From Escherichia coli (GTDB lineage: Bacteria > Pseudomonadota > Gammaproteobacteria > Enterobacterales > Enterobacteriaceae): 64,000 bases of DNA. The DNA is taken from the NCBI RefSeq assembly GCF_003018255.1, contig NZ_CP027440.1. One strand, 5' to 3'. The notes beneath the pieces are model-generated. The model worked only from the letters and a program-made list of their open reading frames with translations, did no database searches and had not been told where the DNA came from. A program made the translations under genes and the position numbers. Numbering within the stretch: the stretch's first letter is position 1; each line of letters opens with the position of its first letter. This document shows positions 1-63,413 of the stretch, piece after piece.

Positions 1-102
1 AAGATCGGGCACCGGGCCGTTGCTGCTGGCAAAGTAAATCTGGCGCAGGGACAGCGGGCCGTTGATCAGGCGGGAGAGCAGATAGCTGACGTCGTGATAC
101 AT
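1..102 (-). CDS. yijO: 5' end (first 34 codons) of an AraC-family regulator; gene continues past the window edge
   Basis: Reverse-strand translation from ATG at 100-102 gives MYHDVSYLLSRLINGPLSLRQIYFASSNGPVPDL, matching the recalled YijO N-terminus; position upstream of eptC fits K-12 gene order. Confidence 0.55.
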   Translation of the reverse strand, partial: MYHDVSYLLSRLINGPLSLRQIYFASSNGPVPDL

Positions 103-212
103 GTTATTCCCTTAGGTATGTAGACGGGAAAACAGTAACTGGCATTATGAAAAAAGGCCACCTGAAAAGTGTGGCCTGATGGGAGTGAGATGTAAACATT
201 GCGGCAGTTTCA

Positions 213-310
<98 letters not shown>

Positions 311-327
311 TAACATCTGGCTGATAA

Positions 328-2061
328 TTACTGATTACCCACCTGATCGCCATACGGCAGAGTGTCGTAATCGATCAGTGCGTTTTTCTTATACGGGTTA
401 CCAATCCAGCGGGTAGTTTCTTTGAACTGCGGATTCACCACTGAACGGGTTGGATCGTAACCGTCGTAAGATAAGCCCGCCAAATCTGACCAGGTGTGGA
501 TCAGTTCCGCCAGGCTGTATTTACGATCAACATCCTGTGAGAAATCACGCGGATGAGTCGCTTGCCATTTTTCTGACGTCCACAGCAGGAACGGAATGGT
601 GTACATATGACGCGTCGGGTTGTCTTCATTACGCCCCTGAGTTTTGTGCGGCGGCGTGTCGTAAACCTCTTCACCGTGGTCAGAGAAATAAACCAGGAAA
701 CCGTTCGGATCGGTCGCTTTAAAGTCTTTAATCAGGCTGGCAACCACGTGATCGTTGTACAGGTTAGCATTGTCATAATCATTATATGACTCCAGCTCTT
801 CTGCGTTTAATCCCGGTGGAACATGCTCTGTATTACCGTCAAATTTGCCCTGATCTTCCGGATAACGGTACTTGTACTTGATATGCGTACCCAGCAGATG
901 AACGATGATCAGTTTCTTCGGCGCAGGGTCCTTCAGCACTTCCTGGAACGGCTTCAGCACGTTGGTGTCGTATTCACGCGCACTCTGCGTACGTTGCTGG
1001 TTCATGTAGTACTGCTTATCGGTCTGGCGCGAAAATACCGTCAGCATGGTATTGCGGGCGGTCATCGTCTGCTGGTTGGTGATCCAGAAGGTTTTATAAC
1101 CCGCCTGTTTCATCATGTTCATCAGCGACGGCTGCGTCAGATACAGATCCGGGTTCTTTTCATTGGCAAAGGTCAGCGCCTGTTGCAGGATTTCAATGGT
1201 GTACGGACGAGACGTAACCACGTTATTAAACACGGTCAGATTCGGATCGGTTTTATGCAGCGCATCCAGCTCCGGCGTGGTTTCACGCGGATAACCGTAC
1301 AGACTCATGCGTCCACGCTGGGTCGATTCGCCAATTACCAGCACTAAGGTGCGCGGTTCGTTACCCGATTCATCTTTGAAATTCGCCAGCGGCGGCAAGG
1401 CATTATTTTCATTCAGTAGCTTTGTTAGCGAGTTTAGTTGCTGACGATACTGATAATAGCCGGTCAGGAATTGCCACGGTGCGGCAGGCTCCATACGCGA
1501 TGCCAGGTTATCCAACGTTTTCTCAAATGGCTTGTTTTTGATAAACGTATTCATGGCGATCGGATGCAGAATCAAGCCATAAAGTAGGGCAAAAGAGACA
1601 ACATAACGCCACGGCTTTGGAATATAGACCGGGCGCAGGCGCGTCCACAGCAAAACTGCCACCGCCGTATAGGCCAGCGCGATAAGCACAATCTTCAGGC
1701 TGAAATACTGGCTTAAATACTCGCTGGCTTCGTTGGTGTTGGTTTCAAACATCACAAACAGAACGCTCTGCGAGAACTCCTGACCGTAGATGACGTAGTA
1801 GCACAACGCTGCCAGAGAGGCCGCCCATAGCACCACGCCGATCACTGCGGCAATAATTTTAATCCGCTTCGGAAAGAGGAATACCGGGATCAACCACAGC
1901 GAACTGAATAACAGCGAGTCGCGAATGCCGTTAGTGCCACTATAACCACTGATGTAAATAATGGCCTGTAGCAGAGTAGAGAAAAACCAAAAGTAGAGCA
2001 GTGCCCAACCCAGGGCCTTCCAGCTAAAAAGGGGTTTAGCCTGGACTTCTGTGGAATGCAT
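328..2061 (-). CDS. eptC: Phosphoethanolamine transferase EptC (577 aa)
   Basis: Six-frame ORF 328..2106; the internal Met giving MHSTEVQAKPLFSWKALGW matches the recalled EptC/YijP start; N-terminal TM segments plus sulfatase-like C-terminal domain. Confidence 0.9.
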   Translation of the reverse strand: MHSTEVQAKPLFSWKALGWALLYFWFFSTLLQAIIYISGYSGTNGIRDSLLFSSLWLIPVFLFPKRIKIIAAVIGVVLWAASLAALCYYVIYGQEFSQSVLFVMFETNTNEASEYLSQYFSLKIVLIALAYTAVAVLLWTRLRPVYIPKPWRYVVSFALLYGLILHPIAMNTFIKNKPFEKTLDNLASRMEPAAPWQFLTGYYQYRQQLNSLTKLLNENNALPPLANFKDESGNEPRTLVLVIGESTQRGRMSLYGYPRETTPELDALHKTDPNLTVFNNVVTSRPYTIEILQQALTFANEKNPDLYLTQPSLMNMMKQAGYKTFWITNQQTMTARNTMLTVFSRQTDKQYYMNQQRTQSAREYDTNVLKPFQEVLKDPAPKKLIIVHLLGTHIKYKYRYPEDQGKFDGNTEHVPPGLNAEELESYNDYDNANLYNDHVVASLIKDFKATDPNGFLVYFSDHGEEVYDTPPHKTQGRNEDNPTRHMYTIPFLLWTSEKWQATHPRDFSQDVDRKYSLAELIHTWSDLAGLSYDGYDPTRSVVNPQFKETTRWIGNPYKKNALIDYDTLPYGDQVGNQ

Positions 2062-2189
2062 AGTAAGAACCTGTCTTGAAAAAAATATCGCCGAATGTAA
2101 CGACAATTCCTTAAGGATATCTGAAGGGATATCCAGATTTTGAATAAAATGCAGACAGAAATATATTGAAAACGAGGGTGTTAGAACAG

Positions 2190-2230
2190 AAGTATTTCAG
2201 AAAACCCTCGCGCAAAAGCACGAGGGTTTG
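2190..2230 (-). terminator. Putative rho-independent terminator downstream of ppc
   Basis: GC-rich hairpin AAACCCTCG...CGAGGGTTT just after the ppc stop, followed by a short U-run on the transcribed strand. Confidence 0.5.
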
Positions 2231-2243
2231 CAGGAGAGGAAGA

Positions 2244-4895
2244 TTAGCCGGTATTACGCATACCTGCCGCAATCCCGGCAATAGTGACCATTAACGCCTG
2301 CTCGACGCGAGGATCCGGCTCATGGCCTTCTTTTTCTGCCTGGCGGGAGCGGTGCAGCAACTCGGCCTGCAATACGTTCAGCGGGTCGGTGTAAATATTC
2401 CGTAGCTGAATAGACTCTGCAATCCACGGCAGATCGGCCATCAGGTGAGAATCGTTGGCAATCGCCAGCACCACTTTGATGTCTTCTTCTTGCAGATTGC
2501 GTAACTCTTTACCTAACGGCCACAGTGCTTTGTCTACCAGGCGTTGGTCATAGTATTCCGCCAGCCACAGGTCTGCTTTGGCGAAGACCATCTCCAGCAT
2601 GCCGAGACGCGTCGAGAAGAATGGCCAATCGCGGCACATGGCTTCCAGCTCGCTCTGTTTGCCATCTTCGACCACTTTTTGCAGCGCCGTACCTGCACCC
2701 AGCCAGGCGGGGAGCATCAGGCGGTTTTGTGTCCAGGCAAAAATCCACGGAATAGCGCGCAGTGACTCAACGCCACCGGTCGGGCGACGTTTTGCCGGAC
2801 GTGAACCCAGCGGTAGTTTGCCGAGTTCCTGCTCCGGCGTGGCAGAGCGGAAGTAAGGCACAAAATCTTTGTTTTCACGCACGTAGCCGCGGTAGACATC
2901 GCATGAGATAACCGAAAGCTCATCCATAATGCGACGCCAGCTCTCTTTCGGCTCTGGCGGTGGCAGCAGGTTGGCTTCCAGAATCGCCCCGGTATACAGC
3001 GAAAGGCTGCTAACGGTGATTTCAGGCAGACCGTACTTGAAGCGGATCATCTCGCCCTGTTCGGTCACGCGCAGGCCGCCTTTCAGACTTCCTGGTGGTT
3101 GTGACAGCAGCGCCGCATGGGCAGGTGCGCCGCCGCGACCAATGGAACCGCCGCGACCGTGGAACAACGTTAGCTCAATACCCGCTTTTTCGCAGGTTTT
3201 GATTAATGCATCCTGTGCCTGATATTGCGCCCAGGAAGCTGCCATCACGCCCGCATCTTTTGCTGAGTCGGAATAGCCAATCATCACCATCTGTTTGCCC
3301 TGAATCAGGCCGCGATACCAGTCGATATTCAGCAGCTGGGTCATGACATCGTTGGCGTTGTTCAGGTCATCGAGGGTTTCAAACAGCGGAGCAACCGGCA
3401 TCGCAAACCCGATACCCGCTTCTTTCAGCAGCAGGTGGACAGCCAGCACGTCGGACGGCGTTTTCGCCATCGAGATCACGTAGGCGGCAATGGAGCCTTG
3501 CGGTGCTTCGGCAATCACCTGGCAGGTATCGAGCACTTCGCGCGTTTCGGCGCTTGGTTGCCAGTTGCGCGGTAGAAGCGGACGTTTGGAGTTCAGTTCG
3601 CGGATCAGGAACGCCTGTTTGTCGGCTTCTGACCAGCTCTCGTAGTCGCCGATACCGAGGTAGCGGGTCAGCTCGCCCAGCGCTTCGGTATGGCGGGTGC
3701 TCTCCTGACGGATATCAATACGGACCAGCGGTACGCCGAAACATTTCACGCGGCGCAGGGTGTCGAGCAGATCGCCGTTGGCGATAATACCCATGCCACA
3801 CGCCTGAAGTGACTGGTAGCAAGCGTAGAGCGGTTCCCACAGTTCTTCGTTTTGTGTCAGCAGGCCTTCTGGTTTTGGCAGTTCTTCGCCTTTCAGGCGC
3901 GCTTCCAGCCATGCCTGTGTCGCCATCAGGCGAGAACGCAGGTTTTTCATCAGATAGCGATACGGTTCTGCGGCACCTTCTTCGCCAACCAGCGCCAGCA
4001 GTTCAGGGGTCGCTTCAACCATCGACAGTTCAGAAACCAGCACCTGAATATCTTTCAGGAACAGATCGGTGGCTTTCCAGCGACTGAGCAGCAGGACGTG
4101 GCGGGTGATATCGGCAGTGACGTTCGGGTTGCCGTCGCGGTCACCGCCCATCCACGAGGTAAAACGGACCGGAACAAATTCGACGGGCAGTTTGTAGCCG
4201 AGATTCTCTTCCAGTTGTTCGTTCAGTTCGCGCAGGTAATTCGGTACGCCTTGCCACAGGCTGTTTTCTACTACGGCAAAGCCCCATTTGGCTTCATCTA
4301 CCGGGCTTGGACGCAGCTTACGGATTTCATCTGTATGCCATGACTGGGCGATCAACTGGCGCAGGCGGCGCATCAGCTGGTTATGTTCGTAGTCGGCGAT
4401 ATCTTTGTTATCGAGCTGTTTTAAGCAGGCGTTCACTTCCACCATTTTGTGGATCAGTGTACGACGGGTAATTTCGGTTGGGTGAGCCGTGAGGACCAGT
4501 TCCAGCGACAGCGATTCCACTGCTTTTTTGATGGTGTCTTCGCTCAGTTCCGGCTGGTTTTTCAGTTTACGCAGGGTGCGGGCGATCACTTCCGGGTTGC
4601 TGGCAGCTTCGCCTTTCGGCGAAATGCTGTGGTATTGCTCAGCGGTGTTGGCCAGGTTCAGGAACTGACTAAACGCACGCGCAACGGGCAGCAGCTCGTC
4701 GTTCGACAAATTTTGTAAGGTGGTGAGCAACTCCTGGCGGTTAGCATCATTGCCAGCGCGTGAAGATTTCGACAACTTACGGATAGTTTCTACGCGTTCA
4801 AGAATGTGTTCTCCCAACGCATCCTTGATGGTTTCTCCCAGCACTTTGCCGAGCATACTGACATTACTACGCAATGCGGAATATTGTTCGTTCAT
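2244..4895 (-). CDS. ppc: Phosphoenolpyruvate carboxylase (883 aa)
   Basis: Full-length ORF; [31 protein letters not shown]-terminus and C-terminal ...MRNTG are the canonical Ppc sequence. Confidence 0.97.
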
Positions 4896-5137
4896 ATTAC
4901 CCCAGACACCCCATCTTATCGTTTGATAGCCCTGTATCCTTCACGTCGCATTGGCGCGAATATGCTCGGGCTTTGCTTTTCGTCGTCTTTTATAAAGCCA
5001 CGTAAAAGCGGTGACGTCAAATGCTGCGAAATCGCTTCAGCAAACGAATAAATAGCAGGAATTTACGCCATTAAATTCATGACGCTTTAAATAAGCGTAA
5101 CTTATGGGAATGTTAAAAAATCGCCTCGAGTAACACC

Positions 5138-5195
5138 AAAGGTGTAGGTCGGATAAGATGCGTAAGCATCGCATCCGACATTGTTTGGCCTACGT
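5138..5195. repeat. REP element
   Basis: GGTGTAGGTCGGATAAGATGCG...GCATCCGACA palindromic REP consensus between ppc and argE. Confidence 0.65.
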
Positions 5196-5196
5196 T

Positions 5197-6348
5197 TTAA
5201 TGCCAGCAAAAATGGTGAATCACCTGGGTGATCAGTTCGCGGGTGGGCTTGATAAACCTCGTCTCCAGATATTCATCAGGCTGATGAGCCTGATTAATTG
5301 AGCCAGGCCCCAGAACCAGCGTCGGGCATAACGTTTGAATAAACGGCGCTTCGGTACAGTAATTCACCACTTCGGTCTTTGCTCCGAGCAATTTCTCAAC
5401 CACTTCAACCAGTTTATGATTCGGTGGGCATTCATAGCCAGGGATCGGCGGATGCAGCTCGTCGACCGTCAGACGACCCGGCCAGCGTTCGCTCACTGGA
5501 GCCAATGCATCGTTGAGCAAACCATTAAGTTCATTGAGTGTCATGCCTGGCAGCGGACGAATATCCATATGCAACTCACAGCAAGCACAAATACGGTTAG
5601 AAGCGTCGCCACCGTGGATATGCCCGAGGTTGAGCGTAGGGTATGGCACGGTAAACGCGTCGTAGTGATAACGTTCTTTCAGGTTATCGCGCAATTGCAA
5701 AATATGCCCGATGGCGTCGTGCATCAGTTCGATAGCGTTAACTCCGCGTGCTGGATCGCTGGAGTGGCCCGACTGGCCCTGAATACGGATGGCGTTAGAG
5801 ATATGACCTTTATGCGCGCGTACCGGTTGCAGCGACGTTGGCTCGCCAATGATGGCGCAATCCGGGCGCAGGGCGGTAGTTTCGGCAAAATAACGCGCTC
5901 CGGCCATACTGGTTTCTTCATCGGCAGTCGCCAGAATGTAGAGCGGTTTTGCAAGCTTCGTGACGTCGACATCGCGTAGCGCATCAAGGATAAACGCAAA
6001 AAAGCCTTTCATGTCGGCGGTGCCTAAGCCGTAAAGCTTGCCGTCATGCTCCGTCAACGTAAATGGATCGCGCGTCCAGCGTCCGTCATCAAATGGCACC
6101 GTATCGGTATGCCCCGCCAGCAACAAACCGCCAGCCCCCTGTCCGCAACTGGCCAGCATATTAAATTTGTTGCGAGTTCCTGGCACAGGCTGTACTTCCA
6201 CATTGAAGCCTAAATCCTTAAACCAGTCCGCCAGCAGAGTGATTAAATCTGCATTGCTTTGATCGAGTGCCTCTTCCGTGGCGCTTATTGAAGGTGTGGC
6301 AATCAGAGCACGGTAAATCTCGATAAATGGCGGTAATTTGTTTTTCAT
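5197..6348 (-). CDS. argE: Acetylornithine deacetylase ArgE (383 aa)
   Basis: ORF 5197..6387; the internal Met giving [23 protein letters not shown] matches the ArgE start; M20 peptidase family. Confidence 0.93.
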
Positions 6349-6367
6349 TGTTGACACACCTCTGGTC

Positions 6368-6412
6368 ATGATAGTATCAATATTCATGCAGTATTTATGA
6401 ATAAAAATACAC
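6368..6412. promoter_or_regulatory. Divergent argE/argCBH control region with ARG-box-like ArgR operator
   Basis: AT-rich TGAAT...ATTCA-type ARG-box motifs (TATTCATGCAGTATTTATGAATAAAAATACA) between the divergent argE and argC starts. Confidence 0.6.
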
Positions 6413-6501
6413 TAACGTTGAGCGTAATAAAACCCACCAGCCGTAAGGTGAATGTTTTACGTTTAACCTGGCAACCAGACATAAGAAGGTGAATAGCCCC
6501 G

Positions 6502-7506
6502 ATGTTGAATACGCTGATTGTGGGTGCCAGCGGCTACGCTGGCGCAGAGCTAGTGACCTATGTAAATCGCCATCCGCATATGAACATAACCGCTTTGACT
6601 GTTTCAGCGCAAAGCAATGATGCGGGAAAGTTAATCTCCGATTTGCATCCGCAGCTAAAAGGCATCGTTGATCTGCCGTTGCAGCCGATGTCGGATATCA
6701 GCGAGTTTAGCCCAGGGGTGGACGTGGTGTTTCTCGCCACCGCCCATGAAGTCAGCCACGATTTAGCGCCGCAATTTCTTGAAGCAGGCTGTGTGGTGTT
6801 CGACCTTTCCGGCGCGTTTCGTGTTAACGATGTCGCCTTCTATGAAAAATATTACGGCTTTACCCATCAATACCCGGAACTGCTGGAACAGGCAGCCTAC
6901 GGTCTGGCGGAGTGGTGCGGTAATAAATTAAAAGAAGCGAACTTGATTGCCGTGCCAGGCTGTTATCCGACGGCAGCACAGCTGGCGCTGAAACCGTTGA
7001 TTGATGCCGATCTTCTTGACCTCAATCAGTGGCCGGTGATCAACGCCACCAGCGGCGTGAGCGGTGCAGGACGTAAGGCAGCGATTTCAAATAGTTTTTG
7101 TGAAGTTAGCCTGCAACCGTATGGCGTCTTTACCCATCGCCATCAACCAGAGATCGCCACACACCTCGGTGCTGACGTTATCTTCACCCCGCATCTGGGC
7201 AATTTCCCGCGCGGCATTCTCGAAACCATTACCTGCCGCCTGAAACCGGGTGTGAGCCAGGTGCAAGTGGCGCAAGCGTTACAGCAGGCGTATGCCCATA
7301 AACCACTGGTGCGGCTGTATGACAAAGGCGTTCCGGCGCTGAAAAATGTCGTTGGACTGCCATTCTGCGATATCGGTTTTGCCGTTCAGGGCGAGCATCT
7401 GATTATTGTGGCGACCGAAGACAACTTACTGAAAGGCGCGGCGGCACAAGCGGTGCAGTGCGCCAATATTCGTTTCGGCTATGCGGAAACGCAGTCTCTT
7501 ATTTAA
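6502..7506 (+). CDS. argC: N-acetyl-gamma-glutamyl-phosphate reductase ArgC (334 aa)
   Basis: Full [20 protein letters not shown] start; conserved catalytic Cys region (PGCYPTA). Confidence 0.95.
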
Positions 7507-22948: not shown

Positions 22949-23132
22949 CTTGCTGGTTTGTGAGTGAAAGTCACCTGCCTTAGTATCTCAAAACTCATCT
23001 TCGGGTGATGTTTGAGATATTTGCTCTTTAAAAATCTGGATCAAGCTGAAAATTGAAACACTGAACAACGAAAGTTGTTCGTGAGTCTCTCAAATTTTCG
23101 CAACTCTGAAGTGAAACATCTTCGGGTTGTGA

Positions 23133-35252: not shown

Positions 35253-35291
35253 GCCAACCCTTCCGGTTGCAGCCTGAGAAATCAGGCTGAT

Positions 35292-35323
35292 GGCTGGTGA
35301 CTTTTTAGTCACCAGCCTTTTTG
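35292..35323 (+). terminator. rplL-rpoB intercistronic attenuator (partial terminator)
   Basis: GGCTGGTGACTTTTTAGTCACCAGCC hairpin followed by TTTTTG, about 40 nt after the rplL stop and 250 nt before rpoB. Confidence 0.8.
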
Positions 35324-39676: not shown

Positions 39677-42600
39677 GTGAAAGATTTATTAAAGTTTCTG
39701 AAAGCGCAGACTAAAACCGAAGAGTTTGATGCGATCAAAATTGCTCTGGCTTCGCCAGACATGATCCGTTCATGGTCTTTCGGTGAAGTTAAAAAGCCGG
39801 AAACCATCAACTACCGTACGTTCAAACCAGAACGTGACGGCCTTTTCTGCGCCCGTATCTTTGGGCCGGTAAAAGATTACGAGTGCCTGTGCGGTAAGTA
39901 CAAGCGCCTGAAACACCGTGGTGTCATCTGTGAGAAGTGCGGCGTTGAAGTGACCCAGACTAAAGTACGCCGTGAGCGTATGGGCCACATCGAACTGGCT
40001 TCCCCGACTGCGCACATCTGGTTCCTGAAATCGCTGCCGTCCCGTATCGGCCTGCTGCTCGATATGCCGCTGCGCGATATCGAACGCGTACTGTACTTCG
40101 AATCCTATGTGGTTATTGAAGGCGGTATGACCAACCTGGAACGCCAGCAGATCCTGACTGAAGAGCAGTATCTGGACGCGCTGGAAGAGTTCGGTGACGA
40201 ATTCGACGCGAAAATGGGTGCGGAAGCAATCCAGGCCCTGCTGAAGAGCATGGATCTGGAGCAAGAGTGCGAACAGCTGCGTGAAGAGCTGAACGAAACC
40301 AACTCCGAAACCAAGCGTAAAAAGCTGACCAAGCGTATCAAACTGCTGGAAGCGTTCGTTCAGTCTGGTAACAAACCAGAGTGGATGATCCTGACCGTTC
40401 TGCCGGTACTGCCGCCAGATCTGCGTCCGCTGGTTCCGCTGGATGGTGGTCGTTTCGCGACTTCTGACCTGAACGATCTGTATCGTCGCGTCATTAACCG
40501 TAACAACCGTCTGAAACGTCTGCTGGATCTGGCTGCGCCGGACATCATCGTACGTAACGAAAAACGTATGCTGCAGGAAGCGGTAGACGCCCTGCTGGAT
40601 AACGGTCGTCGCGGTCGTGCGATCACCGGTTCTAACAAGCGTCCTCTGAAATCTTTGGCCGACATGATCAAAGGTAAACAGGGTCGTTTCCGTCAGAACC
40701 TGCTCGGTAAGCGTGTTGACTACTCCGGTCGTTCTGTAATCACCGTAGGTCCATACCTGCGTCTGCATCAGTGCGGTCTGCCGAAGAAAATGGCGCTGGA
40801 GCTGTTCAAACCGTTCATCTACGGCAAGCTGGAACTGCGTGGTCTTGCTACCACCATTAAAGCTGCGAAGAAAATGGTTGAGCGCGAAGAAGCTGTCGTT
40901 TGGGATATCCTGGACGAAGTTATCCGCGAACACCCGGTACTGCTGAACCGTGCACCGACTCTGCACCGTCTGGGTATCCAGGCATTTGAACCGGTACTGA
41001 TCGAAGGTAAAGCTATCCAGCTGCACCCGCTGGTTTGTGCGGCATATAACGCCGACTTCGATGGTGACCAGATGGCAGTTCACGTACCGCTGACGCTGGA
41101 AGCCCAGCTGGAAGCGCGTGCGCTGATGATGTCTACCAACAACATCCTGTCCCCGGCGAACGGCGAACCAATCATCGTTCCGTCTCAGGACGTTGTACTG
41201 GGTCTGTACTACATGACCCGTGACTGTGTTAACGCCAAAGGCGAAGGCATGGTGCTGACTGGCCCGAAAGAAGCAGAACGTCTGTATCGCTCTGGTCTGG
41301 CCTCTCTGCATGCGCGCGTTAAAGTGCGTATCACCGAGTATGAAAAAGATGCTAACGGTGAATTAGTAGCGAAAACCAGCCTGAAAGACACGACTGTTGG
41401 CCGTGCCATTCTGTGGATGATTGTACCGAAAGGTCTGCCTTACTCCATCGTCAACCAGGCGCTGGGTAAAAAAGCAATCTCCAAAATGCTGAACACCTGC
41501 TACCGCATTCTCGGTCTGAAACCGACCGTTATTTTTGCGGACCAGATCATGTACACCGGCTTTGCATATGCAGCGCGTTCTGGTGCATCTGTTGGTATCG
41601 ATGACATGGTCATCCCGGAGAAGAAACACGAAATCATCTCCGAGGCAGAAGCAGAAGTTGCTGAAATTCAGGAGCAGTTCCAGTCTGGTCTGGTAACTGC
41701 GGGCGAACGCTACAACAAAGTTATCGATATCTGGGCTGCGGCGAACGATCGTGTATCCAAAGCGATGATGGATAACCTGCAAACTGAAACCGTTATTAAC
41801 CGTGACGGTCAGGAAGAGAAGCAGGTTTCCTTCAACAGCATCTACATGATGGCCGACTCCGGTGCGCGTGGTTCTGCGGCACAGATTCGTCAGCTTGCTG
41901 GTATGCGTGGTCTGATGGCGAAGCCGGATGGCTCCATCATCGAAACGCCAATCACCGCGAACTTCCGTGAAGGTCTGAACGTACTCCAGTACTTCATCTC
42001 CACCCACGGTGCTCGTAAAGGTCTGGCGGATACCGCACTGAAAACGGCGAACTCCGGTTACCTGACTCGTCGTCTGGTTGACGTGGCGCAGGACCTGGTG
42101 GTTACCGAAGACGATTGTGGTACTCATGAAGGTATCATGATGACTCCGGTTATCGAAGGTGGTGACGTTAAAGAGCCGCTGCGCGATCGCGTACTGGGTC
42201 GTGTAACTGCTGAAGACGTTCTGAAGCCGGGTACTGCTGATATCCTCGTTCCGCGCAACACGCTGCTGCACGAACAGTGGTGTGACCTGCTGGAAGAGAA
42301 CTCTGTCGACGCGGTTAAAGTACGTTCTGTTGTATCTTGTGACACCGACTTTGGTGTATGTGCGCACTGCTACGGTCGTGACCTGGCGCGTGGCCACATC
42401 ATCAACAAAGGTGAAGCAATCGGTGTTATCGCGGCACAGTCCATCGGTGAACCGGGTACACAGCTGACCATGCGTACGTTCCACATCGGTGGTGCGGCAT
42501 CTCGTGCGGCTGCTGAATCCAGCATCCAGGTGAAAAACAAAGGTAGCATCAAGCTCAGCAACGTGAAGTCGGTTGTGAACTCCAGCGGTAAACTGGTTAT

Positions 42601-43900
42601 CACTTCCCGTAACACCGAACTGAAACTGATCGACGAATTCGGTCGTACCAAAGAAAGCTACAAAGTACCTTACGGTGCGGTACTGGCAAAAGGCGATGGC
42701 GAACAGGTTGCTGGCGGCGAAACCGTTGCAAACTGGGACCCGCACACCATGCCGGTTATCACCGAAGTAAGCGGTTTTGTACGCTTTACTGACATGATCG
42801 ACGGTCAGACCATTACGCGTCAGACCGACGAATTGACCGGTCTGTCTTCGCTGGTGGTTCTGGATTCCGCAGAACGTACCGCAGGTGGTAAAGATCTGCG
42901 TCCGGCACTGAAAATCGTTGATGCTCAGGGTAACGATGTACTGATCCCGGGTACCGATATGCCTGCGCAGTACTTCCTGCCGGGTAAAGCGATTGTTCAG
43001 CTGGAAGATGGCGTACAGATCAGCTCTGGTGACACCCTGGCGCGTATTCCGCAGGAATCTGGCGGTACCAAGGACATCACCGGTGGTCTGCCGCGCGTTG
43101 CGGATCTGTTCGAAGCACGTCGTCCGAAAGAGCCGGCAATCCTGGCTGAAATCAGCGGTATCGTTTCCTTCGGTAAAGAAACCAAAGGTAAACGTCGTCT
43201 GGTTATCACTCCGGTAGACGGTAGCGATCCGTACGAAGAGATGATTCCAAAATGGCGTCAGCTCAATGTGTTCGAAGGTGAACGTGTAGAACGTGGTGAC
43301 GTAATTTCCGATGGTCCGGAAGCGCCGCACGACATTCTGCGTCTGCGTGGTGTTCATGCTGTTACTCGTTACATCGTTAACGAAGTACAAGACGTATACC
43401 GTCTGCAGGGCGTTAAGATTAACGATAAACACATCGAAGTTATCGTTCGTCAGATGCTGCGTAAAGCTACCATCGTTAACGCGGGCAGCTCCGACTTCCT
43501 GGAAGGTGAACAGGTTGAATACTCTCGCGTCAAGATCGCAAACCGCGAACTGGAAGCGAACGGCAAAGTGGGTGCAACTTACTCCCGCGATCTGCTGGGT
43601 ATCACCAAAGCGTCTCTGGCAACCGAGTCCTTCATCTCCGCGGCATCGTTCCAGGAGACCACTCGCGTGCTGACCGAAGCAGCCGTTGCGGGCAAACGCG
43701 ACGAACTGCGCGGCCTGAAAGAGAACGTTATCGTGGGTCGTCTGATCCCGGCAGGTACCGGTTACGCGTACCACCAGGATCGTATGCGTCGCCGTGCTGC
43801 GGGTGAAGCTCCGGCTGCACCGCAGGTGACTGCAGAAGACGCATCTGCCAGCCTGGCAGAACTGCTGAACGCAGGTCTGGGCGGTTCTGATAACGAGTAA
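39677..43900 (+). CDS. rpoC: DNA-directed RNA polymerase beta' subunit (1407 aa), GTG start
   Basis: GTG at 39677 followed by [51 protein letters not shown]; NADFDGD active-site motif; ends ...GLGGSDNE. Confidence 0.98.
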
Positions 43901-43922
43901 TCGTTAATCCGCAAATAACGTA

Positions 43923-43947
43923 AAAACTCGCTTCGGCGGGTTTTTTT
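43923..43947 (+). terminator. rpoC rho-independent terminator
   Basis: AAAAACTCGCTTCGGCGGGTTTTTTT: GC stem with a TTCG tetraloop and a 7-T run, 22 nt after the rpoC stop. Confidence 0.85.
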
Positions 43948-44139
43948 ATGGGTGTTATTCAGAGGGCAATTCTTCACGGAATTTTTAAGAAAGGCAGGGC
44001 GAAACGAGGAAGAAGCTTTTCGCCCTGGACAACATTCCTGCTGACGGGACTACCATAAAAAAACACAACGCTTTCAACAACCTTGCGTTTTTCATCTTCC
44101 GTAGCGGCTCGGAATAAATTTACGTTGTTACATTCTGTC

Positions 44140-45273
44140 TCATGGCCTTTGCGAGGCGCGTCCCAGATAGCTGTCCCAGTCTTTCCATACCGGCTGCAAA
44201 CCCTGAGCAGTTAACGCGGCAGCAACCGCTTCCGGTCTGCGATCGTCGTGCGGTGAGAACTGTTCCAGCTCGGGGTGATTGTCGGCATAGCCACCTGGCT
44301 GCGTTTTCGAAAAAGCGCTGACGTTATTAATTGCCAGCGGAATAACGCGATCGCGAAACCACGGTGATTCCCGCGTGGAGAGTGACAGTTCAATCTCCGG
44401 TGCAAGCAGCCGGAAGGCGCAGATGGTTTGCACTAACTGGCGTTCATCCATAATCGACGCAGGCTCAATGCCGCCAGTACATGGACGCAGGCGTGGGAAG
44501 GAGATAGAGTAGCGGCTTTGCCAGTAATGCTGTTGCAGCCATAGCAAATGTTCTGCAACCATATAGCAGTCAACGCGCCAGCTGTCGGAAAGGCCAATTA
44601 GCGCGCCGAGGCCTATCTTATCAATCCCCGCACGGCCCAGCCGATCCGGCGTTTCCAGCCGCCAGAAGAAGTCCTGTTTTTTACCTTTCAGATGATGGCG
44701 GGCATAAGTCGCCTCGTGATATGTCTCCTGATAAACCATCACGCCATCCAGACCTAGTTGCTTTAACTCGGCGTATTCCGTCTCCGCCAGCGGTTGCACT
44801 TCCATCTGTAGTGAAGAGAACTGTTCACGCAGGGCAGGGAGATGACGACGAAAGTAATCCATCCCCACTTTCACCTGATGTTCACCAGTGACTAATAGCA
44901 GATGTTCAAAGCCCATCTCCCGTATAGCGGCGCTTTCCCTGGCAATATCCGCTTCATCCAGCGTTTTGCGCTTGATGCGATTGCTCATGGAAAATCCGCA
45001 GTACGTGCAGTCGTTAGCGCAAAGATTGGAAAGATAAAGCGGGACGTAGAAGCTGACGACGTTGCCAAATCGCTGACGGGTCAGACGCTGCGCCCGTTGG
45101 GCCAGTGGTTCCAGATAGCCACTGGCGGCTGGCGATAACAGCGCCATCATATCGTCGCGGGTGAGTTGCGAGGCATTTAGCGCCCGCTCTACGTCAGCAG
45201 CCGTTTTGCTGTTGATACGCAGGCGGATGTCGTCCCAGTCCAGTTGTCGCCAGCGATCGCTGAAGGTTTTCAT
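44140..45273 (-). CDS. thiH: 2-iminoacetate synthase ThiH (radical SAM, 377 aa)
   Basis: [41 protein letters not shown] start; CxxxCxxC radical-SAM motif ([10 protein letters not shown]). Confidence 0.95.
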
Positions 45274-49519: not shown

Positions 49520-49700
49520 GTTAAGGACGTGGCTTGTCAGACGACGGATGAAGCAAGAGACGATCGCCGCAAAGGCGATGCGATAGCAGATTAACTCTTG
49601 TTCCCTTCGCAGGTATTAGCCTGATCAGGTTCCGCGGATCCCGAATAAACGGTCTCAGCCAGTTAAGGCACTCCGACAAGAAATTAGCCCCACAAACGGG
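49520..49700 (-). promoter_or_regulatory. thiC leader with TPP riboswitch (thi-box)
   Basis: Reverse strand of about 49640-49680 contains GGCTGAGACCGTTTATTCGGGATCCGCGGAACCTGATCAGGCTAATACCTGCGAAGGGAAC, i.e. the CUGAGA thi-box core, directly upstream of thiC. Confidence 0.8.
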
Positions 49701-63229: not shown

Positions 63230-63413
63230 CTTGCTGGTTTGTGAGTGAAAGTCACCTGCCTTAGTATCTCAAAACTCATCTTCGGGTGATGTTTGAGATA
63301 TTTGCTCTTTAAAAATCTGGATCAAGCTGAAAATTGAAACACTGAACAACGAAAGTTGTTCGTGAGTCTCTCAAATTTTCGCAACTCTGAAGTGAAACAT
63401 CTTCGGGTTGTGA

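Follow-up and report, generated by a model that had tools for sequence, protein, structure and literature searches.

What has become of yjaZ (also called htrC), the gene that lies between rpoC and thiH in Escherichia coli K-12, in a strain where these two genes are separated by only 239 bp? The question was raised by a 64,000-nucleotide stretch of E. coli DNA (contig NZ_CP027440.1 of assembly GCF_003018255.1), referred to below as the window. An earlier reading of its letters, the original prediction, had held that 239 bp separate the rpoC and thiH stop codons and that yjaZ is either absent from this strain or specific to the lineage of K-12. The two genes converge on the gap as follows.

39677–43900, plus strand: rpoC coding sequence, 1407 aa, from the list of open reading frames (ORFs); stop codon TAA at 43898–43900; rpoC WP_000653944.1 in the RefSeq annotation of the identical region.
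44140–45273, minus strand: thiH coding sequence, 377 aa, the last gene of thiCEFSGH, from the ORF list.

These coordinates confirm a gap of 239 bp, from 43901 to 44139. Our answer, to which we would give a probability of about 0.8, is that the window carries a short allele of this locus that arose by an old deletion, and that what remains in the gap consists of terminators and a conserved structure in the thiH flank.

The window was aligned with the rpoC–thiH interval of K-12 MG1655, which is not equally short, as 1161 bp lie between the same two stop codons. The K-12 interval contains yjaZ (540 bp, 179 aa, plus strand) and, on the opposite strand and convergent with it, the noncoding RNA gene sroH (161 nt), which lies one base past the yjaZ stop; in the extracted K-12 locus, yjaZ is at 787–1326 and sroH at 1328–1488. 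The Rfam score of sroH (RF00372) is 201 bits in both K-12 and O157, and K-12 YjaZ scores 430 bits against NCBIfam NF007263. A tblastn search of the whole 64-kb window with K-12 YjaZ gave a best E-value of only 0.28, and blastn of the window found no match to yjaZ or sroH DNA. With Rfam, no part of the window reached the sroH gathering threshold of 80 bits, and 43000–45000 gave no sroH match even at E ≤ 1. Thus, the gene is absent, as had been supposed, and with it the whole yjaZ–sroH unit is missing from the locus and from the 64-kb window. The loss of sroH alongside yjaZ had been overlooked in the original prediction.

At the K-12 locus (b3988–b3990, b4691), as in the window, rpoC and thiH flank the interval and converge on it. 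Window positions 43801–43952 align with the end of rpoC and its terminator in K-12, and positions 43976–44240 align with the thiH-proximal side, both with 98–99% identity; the conserved parts thus include the rpoC terminator and 164 bp beside thiH. By contrast, K-12 has 921 bp more, with yjaZ and sroH, and 26 nt at the breakpoint cannot be confidently aligned. A pattern search for the 14-bp direct repeat GAAT(A/T)TTTAAG(G/A)AA found two copies 921 bp apart in the long alleles of K-12, O157, ET82, and E69, with one mismatch in each of the E69 copies, and a single copy in the short-allele loci examined. The breakpoint of the window has the following parts.

43953–43978, no strand assigned: diverged patch of 26 nt at the junction, TGTTATTCAGAGGGCAATTCTTCACG, of which only about 50% can be aligned with the K-12 sequence in this position.
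43979–43992, no strand assigned: single 14-nt repeat copy, GAATTTTTAAGAAA, from the sequence print-out and the pattern search.

A virtual deletion of 921 bp from the K-12 locus (654–1574) leaves 240 bp, which are colinear with the 239 bp of the window and compare with it as follows.

43901–43952, left flank: 51/52 identical to deleted K-12.
43953–43978, junction patch: 15/30 identical.
43979–44139, right flank: 158/161 identical.

The difference between K-12 and the window is, therefore, a 921-bp insertion or deletion bounded by direct repeats, together with a small patch that cannot be derived from K-12. The ends of the 921-bp unit showed no terminal inverted repeats, and the K-12 annotation shows no recombinase gene (transposase or integrase) within it. 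Hence, the unit is not of the insertion sequence (IS) or transposon type, although it is flanked by 14-bp direct repeats.

How common is the short allele? In a megablast comparison with 5426 complete E. coli genomes, the rpoC–thiH flanks were detected in 5420 and the yjaZ–sroH segment in 3741, so that approximately 1,680 complete genomes (about 31%) are without yjaZ–sroH anywhere, at the sensitivity of megablast. A megablast query spanning the junction gave just 445 full matches, but it is a poor counter of short alleles, as single-nucleotide polymorphisms (SNPs) break the 28-nt seed. The junction of the window, including the 26-nt patch, is common to the short-allele strains ST95-32, Ec-U10, and MS1737, which are a few SNPs apart, some of them within the repeat copy; ST95 is a B2 lineage. 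The identity of the junction in the window and these three strains suggests one old allele and not recurrent events. In addition, the complete genome of JNE23-011 is 100% identical to the window over 840 bp.

Skippington and Ragan (2012, PMC3318445) reported sroH to be absent from groups B2 and D, from ATCC 8739, and from some Shigella, and interpreted its absence as a secondary loss. The likeness of the window to these sroH-negative B2 and D strains lies in the allele that it shares with ST95. However, that study scored only the presence or absence of small RNAs; the breakpoints, the repeat, the joint loss of yjaZ, and the mobile relatives were not described. The short allele is, therefore, an ordinary strain difference, the sroH half of which has already been published. 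That the gap is a widespread allele, and not a peculiarity of one strain, had been missed in the original prediction.

Other variants of the locus were also seen. In O157:H7-type genomes (NZ_CP062160.1, locus 1013–1456), yjaZ has an internal deletion of about 71 bp at a short microhomology and sroH is intact; the yjaZ product of 147 aa is annotated as "protein HtrC" and scores 311 bits, against an NCBIfam cut-off of 324. ET82 has an IS3-family element (1746–2959) between thiH and the double stem-loop described below, and ET650 has an IS1 inside or beside the yjaZ segment.

The direction of the change was examined with E69, a divergent "E. coli" that has the unit; longer E69-type flanks were taken from a contig with the same YjaZ protein. 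In thiHGSF, the E69-type sequence is 93.1% identical to K-12 and 93.3% identical to the window, and K-12 is 97.6% identical to the window. E69 is about equally distant from both and can thus be taken as an outgroup. The rpoC–thiH interval of E69, including yjaZ–sroH, is 92.6% identical to that of K-12, with no gaps and the same junctions. Since the unit is at the same junctions and its divergence matches that of the flanks, vertical inheritance predating the diversification of E. coli, with loss in the window, is most likely. The original prediction had offered as its other possibility that the K-12 ORF is lineage specific. This is right in that yjaZ varies among strains, but yjaZ belongs to a conserved family and is also found in E69 at the same site.

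Where else does the unit occur? In every context examined, Rfam detects sroH, and it always follows a yjaZ homologue directly, in convergent orientation.

K-12 chromosome: unit at 787–1488 of the locus, sroH 201 bits.
Phage-plasmids of about 90 kb, between tail genes: unit at 6015–6741, sroH 113 bits.
ColE1-type plasmids of 2.4 kb, with yjaZ as the sole annotated gene: unit at 541–1240, sroH 99 bits.
Large Enterobacteriaceae plasmids, in accessory regions: unit at 5001–5718, sroH 112 bits.
Aeromonas hydrophila, beside P2/HP1-like prophage tail genes: unit at 5001–5713, sroH 74 bits (below the gathering score of 80), E = 2e-15.
Waterburya, a cyanobacterium: unit at 5001–5709, sroH 70 bits (below the gathering score of 80), E = 3.5e-14.

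The sroH structure has 37 predicted pairs in seven sequences, 12 of them compensatory, and long invariant single-stranded stretches. The proteins of the YjaZ family (PF27200, NF007263) are about 180 aa long, with approximately 50% identity across phyla to Aeromonas and cyanobacteria and 24 invariant residues. From these sequences, SroH does not look like a free-standing small RNA; it seems to form, with YjaZ, a mobile unit of about 720 bp in which it is the dedicated RNA partner of the protein. The AlphaFold model of YjaZ is confident (predicted local distance difference test score, pLDDT, 90) and may have a weakly RelE/ParE-like fold. A Foldseek search of the fold against PDB and BFVD gave nothing significant; the same is true of the searches for its function in a local copy of Pfam, PADLOC, PHROGs, PDB sequences, and a phage collection. 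A 29-aa ORF within K-12 sroH was rejected, as it is not kept in the ColE1 copy. The old "heat-shock" function of htrC has been retracted (PMC11551758). SroH is a primary transcript; strains lacking it are viable but sensitive to envelope stress (PMC5389530), and this makes it less likely that in K-12 it acts as a simple essential antitoxin. Among the papers searched, we found none that names sroH together with yjaZ or htrC. It is a tentative suggestion that yjaZ–sroH is a mobile protein–RNA module of a new toxin–antitoxin or defence-like kind and, separately, that the double stem-loop described below is an undescribed RNA element. RelE/ParE-superfamily toxins and type III toxin–antitoxin systems (ToxIN) are comparators for the missing yjaZ–sroH unit, and not for the content of the window.

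In other genera, the rpoC–thiH site is occupied differently. Trabulsiella, Citrobacter freundii, and the Enterobacter isolate kpr-6 have phosphotransferase system (PTS) IIB/IIA genes there on the thiH strand, and two further isolates have a GGDEF gene in addition to the PTS genes; the unclassified isolate RIT691 is among the genomes with PTS IIB/IIA genes, with or without GGDEF, at this site. The conserved rpoC-proximal gene end suggests that Atlantibacter and Kosakonia likewise carry PTS genes. In Salmonella enterica subsp. arizonae, the site is taken up by an AT-rich island that exceeds 4 kb (locus 1–4440). The site downstream of rpoC is thus a variable spot across the Enterobacteriaceae.

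What is left in the gap of the short allele? No protein or RNA gene is recognizable there by any tool. The original prediction was correct that the gap contains no ORF of at least 60 codons and that the sole such ORF touching it is antisense to rpoC.

43762–43977, minus strand: 71-aa ORF, antisense to the 3′ end of rpoC; the only ORF of at least 60 codons that touches the gap.

This ORF is considered spurious, since part of it lies opposite the conserved rpoC frame and it crosses the rpoC terminator. Two 36-aa ORFs were also rejected: that at 43948–44058 (plus strand) straddles the allele junction and is impossible in long alleles, and that at 43985–44095 (minus strand) has a frame that a 1-nt change in an A/T run shifts in ST95 and that Trabulsiella does not keep. 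A permissive Rfam scan of 43000–45000 gave only subthreshold matches to rsmX, Trp leader, and istR, all of which come from the rpoC terminator hairpin and are look-alikes.

Each of the two converging transcription units has a predicted intrinsic terminator in the gap.

43922–43947, plus strand: predicted intrinsic terminator of rpoC (rplKAJL-rpoBC), fold −15.5 kcal/mol, z = −2.8.
44057–44087, minus strand: candidate intrinsic terminator of thiCEFSGH, from the fold of 44040–44139; imperfect 9-bp hairpin at 44064–44087 and U7 at 44057–44063.

The first of these, which the original prediction had placed in the gap, has A5 at 43922–26, a 5-bp stem CTCGC/GCGGG at 43927–31 and 43936–40 with a TTCG loop, and U7 at 43941–47, and thus the hairpin and U-tract of an intrinsic terminator. 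At 43928, in the 5′ arm of this stem, K-12, E69, and the three other short-allele strains compared carry a C and the window a T, so that in the window a C–G pair is replaced by a weaker U·G pair; among the sequences examined, this T is shared with JNE23-011 only. The second terminator had been overlooked. It also has a hairpin with a U-tract, although the fold z of the surrounding 100 nt is just −1.5, and in ST95 the tract is U6 instead of U7. From its sequence, 44057–44087 is the best candidate for a canonical terminator of thiCEFSGH. Like the terminators of other convergent gene pairs, both consist of a hairpin between an upstream A-run and U7, and for this reason both look bidirectional. 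A scan of the region for promoter and terminator consensus sequences found no sigma-70-like promoter and no terminator, but such a scan is uninformative here, as it also overlooked the rpoC terminator, probably owing to pairing between the A-tract and the U-tract. There is also a perfect 12-nt inverted repeat, GTTTTTTTATGG at 43940–43951 and CCATAAAAAAAC at 44053–44064, in the tails of the rpoC and thiH terminators. Its arms are about 100 nt apart in the short allele and bracket the double stem-loop; this may merely reflect two similar U-tracts.

The second hairpin of the original prediction, placed at about 43995–44030, was found as a perfect stem, and another hairpin abuts it.

43995–44027, minus strand: stem-loop 2 (SL2), with a perfect 10-bp G+C-rich stem, CAGGGCGAAA/UUUCGCCCUG.
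44028–44045, minus strand: stem-loop 1 (SL1), GUCAGCA-GGAA-UGUUGUC, abutting SL2, from the consensus fold.

Together, SL1 and SL2 form an element of about 70 nt, located 110–125 nt past the thiH stop in several genera. It was found in Trabulsiella, the unclassified Enterobacteriaceae isolate RIT691, the Enterobacter isolate CC120223-11, and five metagenome contigs, and the sequence on either side differs among them; the metagenome pattern scan gave 30 loci, of which 5 are true copies of the element and the rest are chance matches in unrelated sequence. The motifs GUCAGCA, UGUUG, CAGGGCG, CUUCCUC (in the SL2 loop), and CGCCCUGCC are common to all ten sequences compared, and the consensus fold consists of two abutting hairpins. 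A covariance model found exactly one copy per locus, at constant position, as well as a weak, restructured copy in Kosakonia, in which SL2 is followed by UUUU. In the model-fitted alignment, 98% of cells pair, compared with 28–55% with the partners slid, and there are three compensatory pairs; this result must be read with the caveat that the alignment had been fitted to the structure. Covariation is limited (1 of 15 pairs in the consensus fold), as the sequence barely varies. A G·U pair in SL1 is present in 10 of 12 sequences and would give an A·C mismatch on the opposite strand, and a G-to-A SNP in MS1737 turns it into A–U. The G·U pairs thus favour an RNA of the thiH sense. The element is single copy, present in 5420 of the 5426 complete E. 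coli genomes, and unannotated, and no Rfam family matches it.

What is the function of this double stem-loop? We infer from its sequence that it may be a second terminator, or a structure protecting the 3′ end, of the thi mRNA. The original prediction had allowed either a terminator or a small RNA for SL2, and the terminator is the more plausible of the two, because SL2 lies on the thiH-proximal side that is common to all E. coli and because the G·U pairs fit the thiH sense. However, SL2 differs from intrinsic terminators in that it has a stem but no U-tract, and its loop motif is kept in every genus compared, which is unexpected for a plain terminator. The SL2 tail on the minus strand is CCUUUCUUAAAAAUU, with no clean U-tract, and there is no U-run on the plus strand; in other genera, the tail is CCUUCU, again with no U-run. 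The canonical hairpin with U7 sits between thiH and SL2, which in E. coli is without a proper U-tract. A literature search found no published study mapping the 3′ end of thiH.

The history that we propose for the locus begins with an ancestor that would have carried the yjaZ–sroH unit at rpoC–thiH. One old deletion between, or beside, the two copies of the 14-bp repeat would have removed yjaZ, sroH, and their promoters together and kept one repeat copy, and the short allele would then have been inherited and spread by recombination through roughly one third of E. coli. Within this explanation, the sequences make it rather likely that the window allele is a secondary loss. Several observations weigh against it. 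The E69 type is the sole outgroup lineage examined: a scan of the genome collection by an rpoC 3′-end pattern gave 13 loci, with E. albertii, E. fergusonii, and most other Escherichia missed, and yielded E69 as the one divergent "E. coli", so that the argument for polarity depends on a single lineage. The 26-nt patch, about 50% alignable to K-12, means that there was no clean repeat-to-repeat deletion of K-12-like sequence. Furthermore, the unit is mobile elsewhere, on plasmids and phage-plasmids and beside prophage tail genes, and yjaZ is not at the rpoC–thiH site in the other genera examined; for both reasons, a gain followed by spread via flanking homology may apply. With regard to the remainder of the gap, the consensus scan saw no terminator in the region, and SL2 is without a U-tract in most genera. 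If the ancestral locus were instead empty, as in the short allele, the unit would have arrived later as a mobile cassette, and the 14-bp repeat would be its target duplication or a core like that of an attachment (att) site. Such an origin would account for the exact flanking direct repeats, for the copies on phage-plasmids of about 90 kb, ColE1-type plasmids of 2.4 kb, and large plasmids and beside Aeromonas prophage tail genes, for the presence of PTS IIA/IIB genes with or without GGDEF, or of an AT-rich island, but never of yjaZ, at this site in other Enterobacteriaceae, and for a junction patch that is underivable from K-12. We consider it unlikely, however, as the E69-type outgroup has the unit at identical junctions with a divergence (92.6% identity) close to that of the thi flanks (93.1%), and neither the unit nor its ends show a transposase, an integrase, or terminal inverted repeats. 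A target duplication of 14 bp is unusual for insertion sequences. Published parsimony also favours loss (PMC3318445). An assembly or sequencing artefact, or a degraded yjaZ pseudogene hidden in the gap, is extremely improbable: there is no residual similarity to yjaZ or sroH in DNA or protein, the identical 840-bp region occurs in an independent complete genome, and the junction recurs in diverse complete genomes, including ST95, with about 1,680 genomes lacking the unit. The suggestion that correction of a sequencing error might restore an intact yjaZ here thus fails.

The deletion reading also takes the remainder of the gap to be terminators and a structure of the thiH flank, and here the alternative is that the double stem-loop (43995–44045) is no thi terminator but functions independently, as an RNA or as a regulatory site. 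It could be a regulator derived from the 3′ untranslated region, acting via the anti-Shine–Dalgarno-like CUUCCUC loop; SL1, with its GGA loop, could bind a CsrA-type protein, or the element could serve a downstream gene on the thiH strand as leader or insulator. Even taken together, these roles seem doubtful. The conservation of loop and flanks is well above that of usual terminators, with motifs kept across genera while the surroundings differ, and the structure is kept, with three compensatory pairs and the restructured Kosakonia copy. Most genera lack a U-tract behind SL2, other genera have the element 100–150 nt 5′ of a co-oriented GGDEF or PTS IIB gene, and no Rfam family was matched. By contrast, the distance from thiH is constant whatever lies downstream, which ties the element to thiH. 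The SL2 tail is U-rich in E. coli and Kosakonia, the covariation is limited to 1 of 15 pairs, and the gap contains no promoter-like site, although this last point comes from the consensus scan, which is uninformative here. On balance, we think an independent RNA improbable and prefer a structure at the 3′ end of the thi mRNA.

The short allele is a case of nonessential accessory presence or absence, and the coding sequences of rpoC and the thi genes are unaffected. For annotation, this means that short-allele genomes are not expected to have yjaZ or sroH, and that small ORFs should not be called in the gap. SroH has been regarded for 20 years as an orphan trans-acting small RNA, but it appears to have a fixed partner, the uncharacterized YjaZ, in a horizontally mobile unit. 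Should the reading of yjaZ–sroH as a module be true, E. coli strains without the unit would be natural knock-outs in which to test it. The near-universal, unannotated structured element in the 3′ flank of thiH is, like the yjaZ–sroH linkage, a lead worth keeping.

The window also contains rrnB, the genes tufB-secE-nusG-rplKAJL-rpoBC, the thi operon, and the first part of another rrn operon, presumably rrnE. The thi operon has a further recognizable RNA feature.

49585–49685, minus strand: thiamine pyrophosphate (TPP) riboswitch of the thi operon, from Rfam.

Other Rfam matches above their gathering scores are P26 at 35257–35318 (plus strand) and StyR-44 at 23026–23125 and 63307–63406 (plus strand), the latter just 5′ of the 23S gene in both rrn operons.
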